Shown here: one piece after another, positions 31,315-47,732 of the stretch
How the letters are laid out: the number at the start of each line of letters is the position of its first letter
How positions within the stretch are numbered: position 1 is the first letter of the stretch
Source: a virus
Taxonomy: Duplodnaviria > Caudoviricetes
DNA length: 64,000 bases
Direction: 5' to 3' (one strand)
Virus record (IMG/VR): IMGVR_UViG_3300043812_000016
Span: 1-64,000 of that record
Program-made: the position numbers and the translations under genes
The notes under the pieces: model-generated
Seen by the model: the letters and a program-made list of their open reading frames with translations, nothing else
Databases searched by the model: none
Told to the model about the DNA's origin: nothing

Positions 31315-31400
31315 TAGGGTAGGAAGGAATCGAACCTTCGTCTTGGGTTTAATTATTTAGCATAGCTATCCCAATCATTCTACCACTGAAGTATTACCCG
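31315..31400 (-). ncRNA. tRNA-like RNA with 22-nt expanded anticodon loop
   Basis: acceptor GGGTA/TACCC, D loop AGTGGTA, stem TTGGG/CCCAA, T arm GAAGG-TTCGATT-CCTTC. Confidence 0.7.
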
Positions 31401-31524
31401 ATCGACACTTATTTCCAGACAGTAGTGTTATAGTGCCCCACGAAAAGTGTCACTAAACTTCCAGCACTTCTAGCCCACATTGAACATACGCTTAGGTAAT
31501 TTTGTAAATGGTATGTGGGCTATA

Positions 31525-31603
31525 AGCAGGAATATCAGAATTGAACTGATGTTGGTGGAACGAGAAAACGCTCCGAGGTTCTACCAATTGAACTAATTCC
31601 TGC
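31525..31603 (-). ncRNA. tRNA-like RNA with non-canonical anticodon arm
   Basis: acceptor GCAGGAAT/ATTCCTGC, D arm GTTC/GAAC, T arm ATCAG-TTCAATT-CTGAT; anticodon arm GGAGCG-TTTTCT-CGTTCC. Confidence 0.7.
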
Positions 31604-38403: not shown

Positions 38404-38864
38404 AATTAAATAATTGACATCAATTAGTCTTATGTTATACTTATGGTATACATAGGGCTTTTTAATTTATCTTAAATAGTCCAATTTTAGTTGAAATGGG
38501 AGAAGTTCAATAATATGGAAATTACTACTAAAGAGCTTATTGATCATGCAGGAGAAAACATTGATATAGGACGCTAGACTTGTTAATAGTCATACCCGTT
38601 GGCTTGACTATGTTAAGGCTACTCTTCGAGATATAGACCCAAAGTATTATGATAATGTAGAAGATAGATTTAAAGATTTAGCTTTTAGCTTAATTGAGCT
38701 TCTTGGAGAAGCTACTACACAAATCACTAATCTTGATGACGAATTAGACCAAAAAGATGATGAATGGGATAACTATGTTGACGATATTCGGGCTGAATAC
38801 GATGATAGAATAGCTGACTTAGAAACAGAACTAGCAGGAGCTAGGGAAGAGGAGGACGATTAAC

Positions 38865-39263
38865 ATGAATTATATTGATCTAGCTTATACCGTTGAAAAA
38901 GATAAGGTAGAAGAAAAAGTTAAAGAGATTACTGTCGGTAATGAATACCGAGTAGCTAACATTGTTCCATTTGACGAAGACAATATGCTTCTTTGCTTAA
39001 CTAAAGCGCCAGCCACTAATCATGGTTATCAGCCTAAACAATTAGGAGAAATGAAACCTCGTAACCGTGCAGGAGAACCAGCTACTACTCGCCAGCTTAA
39101 TTATATTCGGCAATTAGCTAATAAAGCTGATAAGGACCCGGCAAGCTTAGATTTAGATAATCTAACGAAGAAAGACGCTGGGCGCTTAATTGGTCGGCTT
39201 AAAAAGAACAAAAAGTCCCTAAAGGTCAAGAAGATCTTGATTTCGGACAGGGTTTTGATATGA
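38865..39263 (+). CDS. hypothetical protein with DUF3072-like motif
   Basis: EPATTRQLNYIRQL...LTKKDAGRLI. Confidence 0.6.
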   Translation: MNYIDLAYTVEKDKVEEKVKEITVGNEYRVANIVPFDEDNMLLCLTKAPATNHGYQPKQLGEMKPRNRAGEPATTRQLNYIRQLANKADKDPASLDLDNLTKKDAGRLIGRLKKNKKSLKVKKILISDRVLI

Positions 39264-39308
39264 ATGAATTAGATCAGATGAATTTTGGAAATTAATTCAT
39301 AATTCCTC

Positions 39309-39337
39309 TTGCTTTTCTAATGAGACAGGTGTATTAT
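39309..39337 (+). promoter_or_regulatory. promoter of tRNA cluster
   Basis: TTGCTT-17-TATTAT. Confidence 0.65.
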
Positions 39338-39395
39338 AGAATTGTTGGTTAAATACATTAATTAAATGTTAGTCAAATGGCCAATCCTTTCTTAT

Positions 39396-39468
39396 CGTGG
39401 AGTGGAGCAGTTGGTAGCTCGCCAGACCCATTATCTGGAGGCCACAGGTTCAAGTCCTGTCTCCGCAA
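39396..39468 (+). tRNA. tRNA-Met(CAT), initiator-like (C1:A72), atypical anticodon loop CC-CAT-TA
   Basis: full cloverleaf folded by hand. Confidence 0.85.
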
Positions 39469-39649
39469 TTGGACTTAGTTACCTTTGGGTGATGATAGCT
39501 AGGTCCTGCCTTCTTATAGTTAGACATTTGTTGAATGGTAGCTTCTTTTGGTTTGTAATTTTTGTTCGGACGTGTAAGTTTAACTGTGTGCAATTAGCAC
39601 ACTTGTCTCGATAGTCTAACTGGATAAAACATCGGATTATCTATTATAA

Positions 39650-39723
39650 GTGAGTATCGCCTAATTGGATAAGGCACTTGTCTTCTAAACAAGATATTAT
39701 GGGTTCAAATCCCATTACTCACA
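39650..39723 (+). tRNA. tRNA-Arg(TCT)
   Basis: canonical cloverleaf, loop CT-TCT-AA, A20 in D loop. Confidence 0.95.
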
Positions 39724-39741
39724 TCTTCTTAATTATGGAGA

Positions 39742-40449
39742 GTGGTAGTAATTAAATATTTGATAAAAGATGTTAGTGACGATCAATTTATTAAAGCTGT
39801 TAAATCTAGTAAAACCTATACAGAGATTGCTAAAAAGCTTGGTGCTTACTATGCAAGTGCTCCCTCTGTTGTAAAACGTAGAATTGAACAGTTGGGGATT
39901 GATTTTAAACCTGTGTCTCCTAGATATGAACCAGATGACGTATTTTTCTCAGAGCATCATTATCATACTTCCCATACATTAAGAAGTAGATTACTAAAAA
40001 TAAAAGATCGTGAGTATATTTGTTCTGTTTGTGGGCATCTTCCTATATGGAATGGTCAAGCTCTTACATTGGAAGTTGACCATATTAATGGTGACTCATC
40101 AGATTGTAGGTTAGCTAATTTACGCTGGGTTTGTCCCAATTGTCACTCACAAACAAATACTTACAGAAGGGGTAATAGTGGTTCCCCTAGAGAATACTAT
40201 TATCATAGGGTATGTATTGTTTGTGATAAGGAATTTAAGTCTACATCCAGACATGCTAAATATTGCTCTAAGGAGTGTTATAAAAAGGCTTTTACCAAAA
40301 AACCTCCCATAGGTAAGAATGAACTTATCAAAAGATTACGACAGACTTCTTTTGTTCAGGTAGGGAGAGATTTTAACGTTACTGATAATACAGTAAGAAA
40401 ATGGTGTAGAAAGTATAACATTTCTACTAGGTCAAAAGATTATAAATAA
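39742..40449 (+). CDS. HNH homing endonuclease with zinc fingers and HTH
   Basis: CSVC, LEVDHINGD...NLRWVCPNCH, CIVC..YCSKEC, C-terminal HTH. Confidence 0.9.
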   Translation: MVVIKYLIKDVSDDQFIKAVKSSKTYTEIAKKLGAYYASAPSVVKRRIEQLGIDFKPVSPRYEPDDVFFSEHHYHTSHTLRSRLLKIKDREYICSVCGHLPIWNGQALTLEVDHINGDSSDCRLANLRWVCPNCHSQTNTYRRGNSGSPREYYYHRVCIVCDKEFKSTSRHAKYCSKECYKKAFTKKPPIGKNELIKRLRQTSFVQVGRDFNVTDNTVRKWCRKYNISTRSKDYK

Positions 40450-40487
40450 TCCGAAAATCCGAGTCCGAGTCTCGGTCGGGACATTGT

Positions 40488-40710
40488 AGCAATTATGTGG
40501 AATAGATAGAATTTCATAAAAACACCTCCTTCCAATAAAATTGGATTTCAAAATAATTTAGTTGTAATACATAAGACAATAGGTTCACCCTATAAAGTTC
40601 CTTTCGTTAATACGGAAGACTAAAGTTAGTAGTCTTCTAAAGATGATTAAGTCTTAAAATTTCTTTATTCGTATCCTCTATCTAAGTAGGTTCGATTCCT
40701 GCAATTGCTA
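40488..40710 (+). ncRNA. tmRNA-topology tRNA-like RNA (~223 nt)
   Basis: acceptor AGCAATT/AATTGCT-A, stemless D loop ATGTGGAA, helix TAGATAGA/TCTATCTA, T arm GTAGG-TTCGATT-CCTGC. Confidence 0.7.
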
Positions 40711-40799
40711 TCGGCTAAGAAGTCTTTCTCATTTTATTCTTCTTAGCCTTGTATAATGGTGTTTAGTCATTATTATACTTCTTTTTCTTATTTTCTGTT

Positions 40800-40840
40800 A
40801 AACATCCTGTGGTATCTCCAGCGCAGGATGTTTTTCTTTT
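40800..40840 (+). terminator. terminator of RNA cluster
   Basis: aaacatcctg...caggatgttt + T run. Confidence 0.75.
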
Positions 40841-40972
40841 ATTTCTTTATATTAATATTGATACAAGATTGTACAATCTTATTTCTTGTATTGAATTCAA
40901 TATGAGGAGGTTGGAATGTTAGACTAGGATAGCCTAGCCGTAACCTAGTTTCTCCTAGTGCTAACTCTAGCA

Positions 40973-42250
40973 ATGGGAAAACATTATTTTAAGAAGTTAG
41001 CTGTTGCAACAGTAGCCTTAGCAACTCTTGGAGCAACGATGTCTCTTTCCTCTGGAACTGTAATGGCGGCCAAGGGGGATCATGGTGTCGATTGGTCGAA
41101 ATATCAAGGATCTAATGGTATCTTTGGTTATCCAGACGATAAGTTCGCTGTTATTCAAATGGGTGGTACTACTACTGGTTGGAATCTTTATGACCAGTGG
41201 ACTTATGGATCACAGGTAAGAAGTGCTATTGCTCAAGGCAAGCGGGCGCATAATTATATCTGGTGGCAAAATGTTACGACTACTCAACAGGCGGATCAAG
41301 TATTAAATTACTTTTTGCCTAAGGTACAAACACCGAGAGGCTCAATTATCGCTCTGGACGTTGAGTCAGGCTATCAGAGTACTCAAGCTATTGACCATGC
41401 TTGTCAACGAATTAAAGACGCAGGTTATACGCCAATGGTTTATGGTTATAAGAATTACCTTGTAAATAATACTGATCTTCATTATTTAGCAAGTAAGTAT
41501 CAACTCTGGTTGGCGGAATACCCTAATTATTCAGTAACTAGAGAACCTAATTATAATTTCTTCCCTAGCTTTGAAAATATTGGTATGTTCCAATATACGT
41601 CAACAGCGATTGCTGGTGGTCTTGATCGGAACATTGACCTCACTGGTATTACTGATAATGGTTATACTAATGGTAATGCTCAAAAGCCTAAGACAGAAAC
41701 TCCAGCAACGGAACAAGGTAAGCAACTTCATCAAGATACCCATAATTATGTGGTTAAGTCCGGTGATAGCTGGTGGAAGATTGCTAATGATCACGGAATG
41801 GATATGTACGCCTTAGCTAAGCTTAATGGAAGTACTATTAATTCTGTAATCTACCCCGGACAAGTTCTTCGGGTAGCTGATAAAGGCGAAGGTAATTCTG
41901 TTTCTAACAAGGTGCAAAAACCAGTACCAAGTACTAATACTCAACAAACTTCAACCTATACTGTTCGTTACGGGGACAGTTGGTGGAAGATTGCTAATGA
42001 TCATGGTATGAGTATGTATACTCTTGCACAAATTAATGGTAAGAGTATTTACAATACTATTTACCCCGGTCAAGTATTAAAGATTAGTGGAAACGCTCAA
42101 GTACAACAACGTAAGTCATATACTGTTCGTTATGGCGATAACCTTTCAACAATTGCTTATCGCCTAGGTACTTCTGTAAATCATTTAGTAGCTACTAATG
42201 GTTTAAGAAATGCTAATCTAATTTATCCCGGACAGGTCTTGAGTTACTAA
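40973..42250 (+). CDS. endolysin: signal peptide + GH25 muramidase + 3 LysM
   Basis: GVDWSKYQ, ALDVE, LWLAEY, FQYTS, GLDRN; three LysM repeats. Confidence 0.93.
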   Translation: MGKHYFKKLAVATVALATLGATMSLSSGTVMAAKGDHGVDWSKYQGSNGIFGYPDDKFAVIQMGGTTTGWNLYDQWTYGSQVRSAIAQGKRAHNYIWWQNVTTTQQADQVLNYFLPKVQTPRGSIIALDVESGYQSTQAIDHACQRIKDAGYTPMVYGYKNYLVNNTDLHYLASKYQLWLAEYPNYSVTREPNYNFFPSFENIGMFQYTSTAIAGGLDRNIDLTGITDNGYTNGNAQKPKTETPATEQGKQLHQDTHNYVVKSGDSWWKIANDHGMDMYALAKLNGSTINSVIYPGQVLRVADKGEGNSVSNKVQKPVPSTNTQQTSTYTVRYGDSWWKIANDHGMSMYTLAQINGKSIYNTIYPGQVLKISGNAQVQQRKSYTVRYGDNLSTIAYRLGTSVNHLVATNGLRNANLIYPGQVLSY

Positions 42251-42951: not shown

Positions 42952-45362
42952 TGGAAAAAGATATTAATTTAAATAGTCAAAGCTCAAGGACCTGTAGGTC
43001 CAATGGGTCCTCAAGGTGAACGTGGTCCACAAGGACCAGTTGGCCCTAAAGGAGATAAAGGTGATACTGGAGCTAAAGGTAGTGATGGTGCTAATGGTGC
43101 AAAAGGGGATACTGGTGCTAGAGGTATAAGTATCTGGGCTTCTAAATATGCTCGTGGTGCTAAATTGAATGACCAGTATTGGTCTGATTTGAATGGTACA
43201 AAGGTTGGCTTTGGTCCACAGGTTGGTGATTTAGTTTTACAGACTGATGGAAATGTTTCTATAGTTACAAAGTCAGTAACTTCTTCTGATATTTATACTG
43301 GTGGTGGTTTATGGTCTATAGATGGTTATTTATTTAATATCCGTGGTCCACAGGGTTCTGTAGGTCTTACTGGACCAATGGGACCCGCCGGTCCTAAGGG
43401 AGAAACTGGTGCTACAGGAGCAACGGGCGCTAAAGGTAGTACGGGAGACAGAGGACCTCAAGGAATACAAGGACCTCAAGGAATAGACAAAGGAGACTAA
43501 AGGTGATCAAGGAGATAAAGGAGATACTGGACCACAAGGGCCTAAAGGGGATAAAGGTGATACGGGACCTAAAGGTAATGATGGATTTACCCCACAGATT
43601 GATAGTAATGGTCATTGGAAGATAGGCAATACAACTACTCAATATTCAGTAGGTATGAGGGATCAAGATGACTCAGCTACTCTATTAGATCTTAATACAG
43701 ATAGAGCTGTTTATTATCCGTCTGAAAAAGTAGTTTTCTATGCTACTAGCGTTTCTGGTCATGGTCATTTAGTAGTTAAGTATTATCATTTAAATAATTT
43801 AGTTGCTACTAAGGAAATCTATTATGGAACTTCTGAGCTTAGCTGGTCTTGGCTTTTGCCTGCTGACGATAATATTGGTTATGCTGTAGTAATTGAAAAT
43901 CATGTTGGTAATAATGTATCAACAGAGACAATTGCAATTAATGTAAGTAGCGATCTCTATAATTATCCTATTATGGGATTTATTTCTAGGTATGATAATG
44001 ATTCTCCAACAGAAATAAAAGGGGTTTTAGACTACTTAAAGCGACTTCATATCAATTTAATTCAGTGTTATGATTGGTTTGATTATCACTCTTTGCCATT
44101 ACCTACTTATAGTAATGGTGGTGATAGTTTATTTGTTGCTAATATTTGGAATGATATGGGTAATCGTTTAACTAAAAAGAAAGTTATTGAAGATTACTGT
44201 TATTTAGCTAAAAGCTATGGAATGAAACCTTTAGCTTATATGGCGATGAATGGATCTGATACTAATCAGCTAGTTCACGGATTATCCGCTGATATGTTTT
44301 TATATAATGATAATTCAAAAAGCCTTGACCATGTTTATAAAACTTTAGATAAATCTAATGGCTGGGGTAAATATAATCTTTATAATATGAATTGGATGAA
44401 TGGTCCTTGGCAGGATTATATTTATCGTCAAATGGAAACCGTTAGAAATAATATGCCATTTGTTGGTTGGCATATTGATATGTTTGGTGACCCCGGTAAT
44501 AAGTATGAGGCCAATGGTAATCTAATTAGTAGCGCTACTCTTGCTAATGGTATCCATTATTTCCTAAATAAAGCTGGTAAATTAGGTTGGGATACTGGTG
44601 TTAATTCTGTTGGTGAATACGGACTTGATGATATTAGAAATTCAACAGTTCCTAAATATCTTTATACCGAAGTATGGGATAATCGTAAGACTTATAATGA
44701 CTTGTTTAATCTGGTTAAATTTCTTGCTGAATCACGGGATAGTAACAAGCAAAAGAAAGGTGTAATTATAGCCGCTTATATGGATTATGATTACGCTAAA
44801 AATAATGCTGGTAAGTATTTTAATACGGACGGAATCATTCTAGCTGACTTAGTGATTATGGCTAGTGGTGGTACTCATTTGGAAATAGGGTGAGCATATG
44901 CTCTGTAATGAGTATTTCCCTAATAGTAATCTTAATCTCCCCTCAACGCTTAAAGATAATTATTTACCTAAGATGTATGACTTTTTTGTTGCTTTTAAAG
45001 AAATTATTGGCCTAGGCTATCAAGTTGACGGTTTAGCTACTATTGATGGTGGTAGTGTAGATTATTTACAAAGCGGTAAAGTTTGCGGGATTAGCCGAGG
45101 AAATAAGAATGATTATTTAGGTTTAAGTTTAATTAATCTTAGAACTACTAATACAGAGTGGCGAGATACAAATGCTAATTGTAGTGTTTCTCCAGCACAA
45201 AATATTAGGGTAACGCTCAAGCTAGGTGTAACTAATCATGACTGGTACTATTTTGACTTAGATAATTTAGAGCCTCAAAAATTAAATGTAGGGGCAGACG
45301 GAGTAGTTAATATTTCTTCACTAAGATATTATGGATTTATTTTAGGTATTCCTAAAAAATAG
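42951..45362 (+). CDS. collagen-repeat fibre protein with GH66 (dextranase/cyclodextran glucanotransferase-like) domain; frameshifted
   Basis: GxY repeats then [44 protein letters not shown]66 motifs (ORFs 43003-43500, 43655-44893, 44898-45362). Confidence 0.75.
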
Positions 45363-45554: not shown

Positions 45555-47732
45555 ATGAATAAATTAAGTTTTATTTCAAGCATTCCTAGTGATAATGATA
45601 CAACAATTTATTTAGTGCCTACTAATTCTCAAAAGAGCTTACAGTTCTTTAACGTGGAATTAAATATGCACTTTTATGATCTTAGTGGTAATAGTCGTTT
45701 AACTATTCCGGTAAATGCTAACGATGATGGTGTTTACTTTAAACTAAGCCAGTTATCTTCATTAGGACTAGGAACATATGCTTTTTATCTTAGTATGCGT
45801 TATTCAGACCATATGGAGTATTATCCTAGTAATACAGCGAAGTATATTACTTTGGCTTATAATAACAACAGATTAGTCTTTAAGAGTATCTTTACTCCCG
45901 AAGCTACTAATATTACTCCTCCCGATACGAGTAAGATTGTTGAACGCCAAGTTTTGCACGTCCATGATATTGATATTAAAGATATTAAGGTATCGACAAT
46001 TGACTCTAATAAAAACGCTAATGTTTATCTAGATCAGTATGATGTTTTACATTTTGATATTCCTAAGGGTGAGACTGGTAAGTCTCTATATGAATTAGCA
46101 CGGGACGCTGGTTTTACTGGTAGTTTTAAAGACTATGAAAAAACTTTAGTTGGTCCTACTGGTCCTAAAGGTGATCGTGGTTATAATATCTGGTTCGATA
46201 CCCATGATTATGGTGAAAACTACCGTGGCTCTTATTGGACTGACTTAAAGGGATCTGCTCCCGATCGTGGACCACAGGTTAGCGACTTAGTGGTTTTAAG
46301 TAGTGGTCATTTAGTTCAAGTAACTGGTGTTAGTTACGGTGGTGTTCCCGAAGCTGGTGGAGGTACCTTTAATTATGGTCCTTACTTAGCTAACTTAGCT
46401 GGTGTAGCTGGACCAAAAGGTGATCGTGGTGCTACTGGTTTACAAGGTCCTCAAGGTAATACTGGACCTACTGGTCCACAGGGTCCTGTAGGTCCTGCTG
46501 GTAAGAACTTTAATATTAAAAAGACTTTTGATTCTGTATCTGCAATGAATGCAAGTAATGGCGCTGGATTTACTGACGGTGACTTTACAATGATTGCAAG
46601 TAATGTTAGTGATCCTGATAATTCAAAGCTTTATGTTTGGGACGGAAGTAAGTTTGTTTATATTTCTGACCTTTCTGGTGCCCAAGGTATTCAAGGACCA
46701 CAAGGGATTCAAGGTATTCAGGGGGTTCAAGGTAAGCAAGGTTTAACTGGACCTCAAGGACCAAAGGGGGATAAAGGTGATACCGGGGCTACTGGACTCC
46801 AAGGACCCAAGGGGGATAAGGGTGAAACCGGACCACAAGGTCCTCAGGGTGTAAAAGGTGATACAGGTGACACTGGTACTGTTGATAATGCCGGATTGAC
46901 CACAGCGCCCGCTTTTGTTAAGCTTCAAACGCAGGTCAATAATAGTGCTGTGGGTACTAACCTATTAATGGGCACACGTGATTGGCAAGGGGACTGGAAA
47001 AATCTCCCATCATGGATGGTGAGTGAAGAGACGTACAAAGGTCTTACTGTTCGGTACTATTCACACGCATGGGATGGCCTAATGCAATATTATGACGCAG
47101 ATCCTAACACTACGTATACTTTTAGCTTCTATGCCAAAGCATCCGAAGCAGATAACAGCATGACTATATTTGTGCTTGATTCAGATGATTGGAGCAGTCC
47201 AGTCGTTAGCAGACCAGACTATGTTGGTCAAACTATAACAACAGAATGGCAACGATATTCAGTCACCTTTACTACTAAGAGTGGTGGGAAGATTTCCCCA
47301 AATGTCTGCTCTAATAAAGATGGTGTGACAATTTATGCGGCTGGTTACAAACTTGAAAAAGGTAGCGTAGCTACTGACTGGATGCCAGCGCCAGAGGATA
47401 GGGGTGATCGGGGTCTAAGTATCTGGTTTGATAAGTATGCTTATGGCGGTAATAGACCTAACCAATACTGGTCTGATCTTTACAATACTAAAGTTGGTTT
47501 TGGTCCACAGGTCGGCGACTTGATTATCCAAACTAATGGTATGATTACCCAAGTAACTGCTGTTAATGCTAGTGGAGATGCTTCTACTGGTGGTGGTACT
47601 TTTGATACGGGTGCTGTTATTGGTAATATGCAAGGTCATACCCCTGTTCGTGGTACTGATTACTGGACTGACGCAGATAAAAATGAAATTAAGTCTTATG
47701 TAGATGACGCAATTTTAAATGGAAAGTGGTGA
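45555..47732 (+). CDS. collagen-repeat tail fibre / receptor-binding protein with carbohydrate-binding module
   Basis: GxY runs, GTNLL..YTFSFYAK..EWQRYSVTF..KLEKGSVATDWMPAPED, TPVRGTDYWT tail. Confidence 0.85.
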   Translation: MNKLSFISSIPSDNDTTIYLVPTNSQKSLQFFNVELNMHFYDLSGNSRLTIPVNANDDGVYFKLSQLSSLGLGTYAFYLSMRYSDHMEYYPSNTAKYITLAYNNNRLVFKSIFTPEATNITPPDTSKIVERQVLHVHDIDIKDIKVSTIDSNKNANVYLDQYDVLHFDIPKGETGKSLYELARDAGFTGSFKDYEKTLVGPTGPKGDRGYNIWFDTHDYGENYRGSYWTDLKGSAPDRGPQVSDLVVLSSGHLVQVTGVSYGGVPEAGGGTFNYGPYLANLAGVAGPKGDRGATGLQGPQGNTGPTGPQGPVGPAGKNFNIKKTFDSVSAMNASNGAGFTDGDFTMIASNVSDPDNSKLYVWDGSKFVYISDLSGAQGIQGPQGIQGIQGVQGKQGLTGPQGPKGDKGDTGATGLQGPKGDKGETGPQGPQGVKGDTGDTGTVDNAGLTTAPAFVKLQTQVNNSAVGTNLLMGTRDWQGDWKNLPSWMVSEETYKGLTVRYYSHAWDGLMQYYDADPNTTYTFSFYAKASEADNSMTIFVLDSDDWSSPVVSRPDYVGQTITTEWQRYSVTFTTKSGGKISPNVCSNKDGVTIYAAGYKLEKGSVATDWMPAPEDRGDRGLSIWFDKYAYGGNRPNQYWSDLYNTKVGFGPQVGDLIIQTNGMITQVTAVNASGDASTGGGTFDTGAVIGNMQGHTPVRGTDYWTDADKNEIKSYVDDAILNGKW

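Follow-up and report, generated by a model that had tools for sequence, protein, structure and literature searches.

Three ways are known in which homing endonucleases keep from harming their hosts: they reside in self-splicing introns or inteins, they settle between genes or, rarely, they split a protein that reassembles. Mobile group I introns, some with endonuclease open reading frames (ORFs), occupy the anticodon loops of bacterial and plastid transfer RNA (tRNA) genes such as tRNA-Leu(UAA). A group I intron in tRNA-Ile has been described from Azoarcus (PMC13168695). Phage tRNA regions also harbour site-specific endonucleases, including the F-Tfl enzymes of T5 and SegB of T4 (PMC2330249). 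The F-Tfl enzymes are of the HNH type and belong to the tRNA gene region of T5 (Akulenko et al. 2004, as cited in PMC2330249 and PMC10644984). SegB is a free-standing GIY-YIG homing endonuclease, encoded in the T4 tRNA cluster, that drives preferential inheritance of its own gene and of neighbouring tRNA genes by co-conversion, and tRNA processing at the segB stop codon is reported to restrict expression of the gene (PMC2330249). An arrangement termed 'genes in pieces' is represented by mobE in nrdA of Aeromonas phage Aeh1 (J Bacteriol 2007;189:4648, as cited in PMC2330249). Here we analyse a locus at 39605-40483 of IMGVR_UViG_3300043812_000016, a 143-kb metagenome-derived phage record of which the first 64 kb form our window. 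At this locus, two halves of a tRNA-Arg(UCU) gene, hereafter the shell, enclose a second, complete tRNA-Arg(UCU) and an HNH endonuclease gene. The comparisons presented below make it likely that a mobile homing-endonuclease cassette, consisting of the inner tRNA and the HNH gene, invaded and permanently split a resident tRNA-Arg(UCU) gene.

The locus shares features with each of the described systems and departs from all of them. Its HNH enzyme is homologous to that of T5 hegA (F-TflIV) across 90% of its length, with the same domain order and invariant HNH and zinc-binding residues; both genes lie on the tRNA strand, inside a tRNA cluster right after a tRNA gene, and their presence varies among close relatives. 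Whereas hegA is free-standing, the HNH gene here lies inside a tRNA gene, takes its stop codon from the loop of its target and brings along a spare tRNA with the same anticodon. SegB likewise has its target in the tRNA gene DNA of related phages without segB, and its ORF end abuts a tRNA so that its mRNA is touched by processing, but it belongs to the GIY-YIG family, recognizes the T-psi-C region rather than the anticodon loop and interrupts no tRNA gene; the tRNAs that accompany it are ordinary neighbours, with no nested replacement. As described in the citing literature, mobE is also an intron-less HNH homing-endonuclease gene that splits a host gene in two, but the nrdA protein pieces reassemble and function, whereas the gene split here encodes an RNA that is left without an anticodon and a second complete copy is supplied. 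Group I tRNA introns resemble the cassette in their anticodon-loop insertion, their selfish character and the shielding of the carrier allele by the insertion; in contrast, the present locus has no ribozyme core, target bases are lost, and a replacement gene takes the place of splicing. In a literature search, no published account emerged of an endonuclease that lies within a tRNA gene and is accompanied by a spare tRNA, in line with an earlier note on this DNA, according to which no described element of this architecture is known.

The 5′ half of the shell (39605-39638, plus strand) corresponds to positions 1-33 of the resident tRNA-Arg(UCU). It comprises the acceptor strand GTCTCGA, TA, the D stem GTCT/AAAC (3 of 4 pairs) with D loop AACTGGATA, A26, the anticodon-stem strand TCGGA, T32 and T33. 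The 3′ half (40447-40483, plus strand; positions 36-73) continues from 40448 with A37, A38, TCCGA, AAAT, the T arm CCGAG-TCCGAGT-CTCGG, TCGGGAC and the discriminator A73. Between both anticodon-stem strands lie 813 nucleotides (nt; 39637-40449), within which the cassette extends over approximately 39639-40446. An 11-nt linker, ATCTATTATAA (39639-39649, plus strand), forms the 5′ edge of the insert and leads into the inner tRNA-Arg(UCU) (39650-39723, plus strand); after a spacer of 18 nt, the HNH gene follows on the same strand (39742-40449), and its TAA stop (40447-40449) doubles as shell loop positions 36-38 (T36 A37 A38). The anticodon helix extends into the insert, in that T32, T33 and the first 6 nt of the linker pair with the end of the HNH ORF. 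A terminal inverted repeat results, with left arm TCGGATTATCTATTAT (39632-39647) and right arm ATTATAAATAATCCGA (40439-40454) complementary at 14 of 16 positions; a repeat search ranked it as the top inverted repeat of the region. The earlier note had described the halves (as 39605-39638 and 40448-40483) with their stems and 813-nt loop, and their coordinates and sequences were recovered as claimed, as were the inner tRNA, the HNH ORF with its TAA abutting the 3′ half and the extended helix. ARAGORN gives no call for the shell, even when introns of up to 1500-2000 nt are allowed, because its anticodon is gone.

Evidence for an invasion comes from sister phages in which the site is empty, a comparison that the earlier note had proposed. 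Five related IMG/VR contigs (L004-L008) were retrieved through the protein encoded just upstream of the locus (38865-39263), and all five carry an uninterrupted tRNA-Arg(TCT) at the shell site, after tRNA-Met. The corresponding tRNA-Met(CAU) of the window (39395-39469, plus strand; ARAGORN; Rfam tRNA 54.1 bits) is the upstream neighbour in a small tRNA operon; in the related phages the intact tRNA-Arg lies about 135 nt further on, and this order is conserved in L004-L008. The flanks of these contigs are 84-99% identical to the window, and their DNA aligns with it to approximately 39636-39643 and resumes from 40447 or 40461; the HNH enzyme is encoded at none of the five empty loci. In L005 and L008, the intact gene (Rfam, 58.5 bits) equals the shell halves joined by TC, with its first 34 and last 37 nt matched by the two halves (34/34 and 37/37). 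The joined sequence thus agrees at 73 of 73 letters, which is far beyond chance. The insert of about 808 nt sits in the anticodon and replaces T34 and C35. By this comparison, the shell halves are best described as the insertion scar of a resident tRNA-Arg gene and not as a new kind of tRNA.

The empty alleles themselves are unusually variable. Three different tRNA-Arg(UCU) alleles occur at the locus among four phages of one metagenome (L004:5742-5814, L005:1308-1380, L006:5742-5815 and L007:5743-5815). The L004 allele is a mosaic that combines the L005 type with the L006 type, has a C27-A43 mismatch in its anticodon stem and scores only 38.5 bits; it looks like a gene-conversion patchwork at a nuclease target, and the strong polymorphism of the locus fits a recombination hot spot. 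Position 27 is T (GCAT) in the invaded shells and in the two empty alleles of L005 and L008, and C (GCAC) in the uninvaded alleles of L004, L006 and L007 and in every inner tRNA. Within this small sample, the correlation suggests that position 27 is a candidate recognition determinant.

The HNH enzyme of the cassette counts 235 amino acids from a GTG codon, its true start codon being uncertain. An N-terminal helical domain is followed by the HNH/zinc core, a second zinc ribbon and a C-terminal helix-turn-helix (HTH), and the protein matches Pfam HNH_3 (29.8 bits against a cut-off of 24.8) and HTH_28 as well as phrog_10822 (E 2.5e-48, over 7-243 of 245). Across 12 family members, residues C94, C97, H114, N126, C131, N133, C134 and H135 do not vary; the catalytic His/Asn/His and both Cys4 sites are invariant, and by its residues the enzyme looks intact. 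An AlphaFold2 (AF2) model reached a pLDDT (predicted local distance difference test score) of 87.8. Foldseek searches with this model returned only weak HNH-domain matches, with McrA at E 0.027 and I-HmuI far down the list, and a sequence search of the PDB gave no significant match. A characterized relative is T5 hegA, annotated as H-N-H endonuclease TflIV, with 24% identity over residues 10-220 (tblastn, E 2e-12). The HNH core, the full-length homology and the presence/absence polymorphism among relatives place the enzyme, on sequence grounds, in a clade of homing endonucleases of phage tRNA clusters that includes T5 hegA/F-TflIV. It does not qualify as a free-standing homing endonuclease, the HNH gene lying inside tRNA-Arg between positions 33 and 36.

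The inner tRNA is canonical, with a cloverleaf, the conserved tertiary positions and a 7-nt anticodon loop; it is called by ARAGORN and scores 70.8 bits with Rfam RF00005 (gathering score 29). All six cassettes compared share exactly the same inner anticodon arm, CTTGT-CTTCTAA-ACAAG, which is unlike that of every shell; in the window, the anticodon stems are CTTGT/ACAAG in the inner tRNA and TCGGA/TCCGA in the shell. According to ARAGORN, the inner tRNA is the sole tRNA-Arg across the 143-kb genome. The phage needs this spare tRNA, because it has no other tRNA-Arg and AGA makes up 29.6% of its Arg codons, being the second commonest. AGA accounts for 11 of the 19 Arg codons of the HNH gene. Counting AGA and AGG together, the proportion is 15 of 19 in the HNH gene (39742-40446) against 38.5% in the long ORFs of the phage; the cassette tRNA thus reads the codons that are richest in its own mRNA, which AT-rich composition alone could explain. 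Exact-pattern scans for the inner tRNA gave no match in IMG/VR and none in GTDB genomes, while two metagenome contigs matched; with no counterpart in the GTDB genomes, the inner tRNA is not an evident host tRNA.

Further phages carry the same cassette, also in other shells. Close HNH relatives were sought among 5.8 billion proteins and their contigs were compared; within IMG/VR only one distant relative was found, and the locus DNA gave only generic tRNA-Met matches to GenBank phages. An independent gut-metagenome contig from a different study (L011) carries the same cassette, shell and junctions, with 90% amino acid identity in the HNH protein. At the DNA level the two HNH genes are 89.9% identical, and 47 of their 71 changes fall at third codon positions. 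The synonymous divergence (dS) is 0.40 and the ratio of nonsynonymous to synonymous divergence (dN/dS) is 0.12, a value that points to purifying selection on a functional HNH gene. In contrast, the shell shows no change in 71 positions and the outside flanks 2 in 50, and it follows that the age of the nuclease gene far exceeds that of the surrounding backbone. A divergent HNH gene in a near-identical backbone indicates that the cassette moves between phage backbones. The L011 linker is ATTTATTATAA, and the first 13 base pairs (bp) of its terminal helix are perfect. Homologous cassettes with 48-60% amino acid identity are nested in at least four other shells of metagenomic phages (L012/L019, L013/L014, L015-L017 and L018), which differ in acceptor, anticodon and T stems, and each has a tRNA-Arg(UCU) directly upstream of the HNH gene. 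The HNH gene lies on the tRNA strand in all eight nested cases.

The edges of these cassettes are less constant. In L013 and L015 the linker measures 2 nt, and in L012 and L018 it reaches 24-26 nt and includes a hairpin; the extended terminal inverted repeat is not kept in L013, L015 and L018. As a separate observation, the linkers at L012:1024-1047, at L018:102-127 and, on the reverse strand, of L019 consist of a short hairpin followed by a run of T, a feature absent from the window cassette. Between L012 and L019 the hairpin stem changes are compensated, and the loop resembles a -10 box (TATAAT); the hairpin may be a terminator or a promoter.

These independent occurrences also bear on whether the locus could be an artefact, that is, a chimeric contig or a chance juxtaposition that placed an unrelated tRNA and HNH gene inside a tRNA gene. 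The window does stem from a metagenome-derived virus record. However, the same junctions occur in the independent assembly L011, five other independent assemblies show analogous nesting, and nested layouts are found in the complete genomes of the cultured phages PEf771, Bop and iF6. We give this explanation almost no weight.

PEf771, Bop and iF6 belong to a wider family, as Enterococcus and Aeromonas phages also encode HNH homologues within their tRNA clusters. All three are cultured Enterococcus Schiekvirus genomes with sister phages that keep the tRNA intact. In PEf771 (L001, MN241318.1, 70652-71484), a relative with 39% identity interrupts tRNA-Lys(CUU) at position 36/37 as a clean insertion of 758 nt; in Bop (L023, vB_OCPT_Bop, ON125307.1), a relative with about 32% identity replaces 14 nt of tRNA-Gln; and in iF6 (L003, MT909815.1), one with 35% identity replaces 26 nt of tRNA-Pro. 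The split tRNAs are unannotated, and the inserted gene is labelled only HNH endonuclease or hegA, with no label in iF6. These inserts resemble the window cassette in the HNH clade, the tRNA strand, the tRNA region and a stop codon at or near the 3′ junction, but a spare tRNA is lacking; the tRNAs they split belong to phage sets of more than 20, and a second Lys isoacceptor adjoins the split tRNA-Lys. T5 hegA and two metagenomic relatives, on the other hand, are free-standing just downstream of a complete tRNA, and no tRNA halves flank T5 hegA. Because the nuclease gene directly follows a complete tRNA in these three cases, a neighbouring pair of tRNA and HNH gene is a plausible ancestor of the nested cassette. 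Two further observations were made in this family. ARAGORN finds a transfer-messenger RNA (tag AKNEELLAVA*) in the iF6 tRNA cluster (L003:360-707), which is annotated likewise in the record. The HNH relative P0010 (L028:1501-2217; 38% identity) matches its recorded protein only when TAG is read as Gln, which suggests that its phage has a recoded stop codon.

The anticodon-loop position of the window insert invites a comparison with true tRNA introns. Under such an explanation, the insert would be removed, by self-splicing or with the help of proteins, the outer tRNA-Arg would be regenerated, and the inner tRNA and HNH gene would be cargo. The site is classic for bacterial group I tRNA introns, and removal of the PEf771 insert at 36/37 would restore tRNA-Lys(CUU). 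In the window, however, T34 and C35 are missing and no junction restores UCU; joining the halves leaves a 5-nt loop without an anticodon, and because these two bases were replaced the insert is not spliceable to a decoding tRNA. The loop remnant also differs between copies, being ATCTA in the window and ATTTA in L011 (TCT and TTT, respectively), and 14-26 nt of exon are missing in Bop and iF6. Nor is much non-coding sequence left: the ORF reaches the last base of the insert, and of 103 non-coding nt, 74 belong to the inner tRNA, leaving 29. In agreement with the earlier note, which had seen no group I or II core, Rfam cmscan of 38800-41200 detected two tRNAs only and no Intron_gpI or group II match on either strand at E values up to 10. 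The boundaries lie within a continuous helix of 13-16 bp, with no bulge-helix-bulge (BHB) and none of its 3-nt bulges. A tRNA-shaped insert that would be trimmed out does not fit the locus either: the pairing between the two insert ends is merely AT-rich, and the anticodon has gone. An intron is thus highly improbable. For group I and group II introns as for archaeal-type split or BHB-intron tRNAs, the locus lacks the defining core, restoration and BHB features, and these classes were rejected.

The observations establish an insertion polymorphism, recurrence in several shells, an intact HNH gene under selection, a canonical inner tRNA and the lack of an intron core; the cleavage, its target, immunity, the repair route and the mode of expression are proposed from them. 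In a mixed infection, the HNH enzyme would recognize the DNA of a sensitive-type tRNA-Arg(UCU) gene without an insert (...GCATCGGATTTCTAATCCGA...) and nick or cut it in or near the anticodon loop. The break would then be repaired from a cassette-bearing genome, with the tRNA halves serving as homology arms, and the cassette would be copied in. Insertion would remove the recognition site and render the carrier genome immune, while the inner tRNA would restore AGA decoding and escape cutting through its different anticodon stem. A promoter/terminator scan gave nothing exceeding shuffled expectation. Because no promoter of its own is evident and the cassette is always in tRNA orientation, its expression probably depends on read-through from the tRNA operon, and the inner tRNA would be released by RNase P and 3′ processing. 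The shell halves would be a young relic whose intact pairing was inherited from living target genes. The earlier note had offered a homing element that invaded the tRNA-Arg anticodon and brought a diverged replacement tRNA as one of two explanations, and the empty alleles, the recurrence, the clade membership and the lack of an intron core favour it.

Several points weigh against this proposal. The putative cut site is placed from the site of insertion. The founding event appears not to have been simple homology-driven homing, because the insert replaced 2 nt instead of being cleanly inserted. A donor with tRNA-Arg and HNH gene but no shell was not found; each of the five closest lineages has the nested arrangement. 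In five of six lineages the shell stems pair completely, and about 8 double compensatory changes separate the shells of the syntenic phages L013 and L015, which could reflect selection on the fold after insertion. Empty alleles for the L013 and L015 shells were not found: no relatives turned up in IMG/VR, and ENFP1 and ATCCB, which are the nearest cultured phages, lack synteny at this site. Finally, the 13-16 bp terminal helix of the window and L011 is not explained by a homing cassette.

The same features can be read as signs that the shell, with an identical DNA history, is kept for its RNA, as a tRNA-like handle trimmed by RNase P and by 3′-processing and CCA enzymes. Such a handle may define or stabilize the ends of the HNH mRNA, yielding a 'tRNA-capped mRNA', or tune nuclease expression, and T4 segB provides a precedent for tRNA processing of a nuclease mRNA (PMC2330249). 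Every shell stem pairs in the window, L011, L013, L015 and L018, and the anticodon helix is lengthened to 13-16 bp in the window and L011, where the chance of 8 bp beyond the anticodon stem is about 7e-4. The L013 and L015 shells are compensated in all three stems, and divergence is similar in their cassettes (63% DNA identity) and their backbones (48-76%); this compensation indicates selection if the insertion is ancestral and is meaningless if the two phages were invaded separately. The absence of shell changes between the window and L011, set against the HNH dS, points in the same direction. However, the shell is identical to a living sister-phage allele and the non-tRNA flanks are as conserved, so that recent homing would suffice to explain its conservation without shell-specific selection. 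The shell also decays elsewhere: the 5′ half of L019 has lost its 3′ D-stem strand and adjacent bases, and tRNA core sequence is lost in Bop (14 nt) and iF6 (26 nt). Linker and extended helix vary among cassettes, and processing of the inner tRNA would itself cut the 5′ half off the mRNA. A handle selected for its RNA is therefore improbable, and the view of the earlier note that the retained pairing reflects selection on the shell is not supported in view of the identity with the living allele, the equally conserved flanks and the decay in L019, Bop and iF6.

If the locus is a homing cassette, a broader proposal would be that nested cassettes form a distinct mobile class, a 'cut-and-replace' homing unit that uses tRNA halves as portable homology arms between unrelated phages and repays the damage with its own tRNA. 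In its strongest form, the shell would also be selected as an RNA handle that matures or stabilizes the mRNA, a form that remains compatible with the data because of the compensated L013/L015 differences and the extended closing helix. We regard this proposal as speculative and rather unlikely.

The surroundings of the locus add some context. The DNA polymerase of the phage is closest to that of Lactobacillus phage LfeInf (54% amino acid identity) and those of L. plantarum myophages. Right after the shell, 40488-40710 forms a tRNA-like frame with acceptor AGCAATT/AATTGCT and T arm GTAGG-TTCGATT-CCTGC that encloses about 166 nt; it yields no tRNA or tmRNA call and is 84-98% conserved in L004-L008. 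This frame had also been flagged in the first reading of the sequence, as had two further tRNA-like scaffolds at 31315-31603. An endolysin with a GH25 and three LysM domains is encoded at 40958-42250, and downstream of it lie genes for a GH66 (dextranase-family) protein and a collagen-repeat/CBM_4_9 protein (43655-44893 and 45555-47732), which are probably a host-polysaccharide depolymerase and a fibre.

Our comparative analysis describes a new arrangement, in which an HNH homing endonuclease of phage tRNA clusters has its gene inserted within a tRNA gene and, in this subclade, brings a replacement tRNA with it. It would represent a fourth way for homing endonucleases to spare their host, namely to break the target for good and bring a resistant replacement. 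It would also account for missing tRNAs and for tRNA 'pseudogene' fragments in the tRNA clusters of phages, cultured Enterococcus phages among them, as well as for the unusually polymorphic, mosaic tRNA alleles at such loci. For annotation, the finding matters since the shell escapes tRNA finders and the enzyme receives no more than the label 'HNH endonuclease' from gene callers. The pair of putatively sensitive and immune tRNA genes could provide a testable system for how an HNH enzyme reads tRNA gene DNA.

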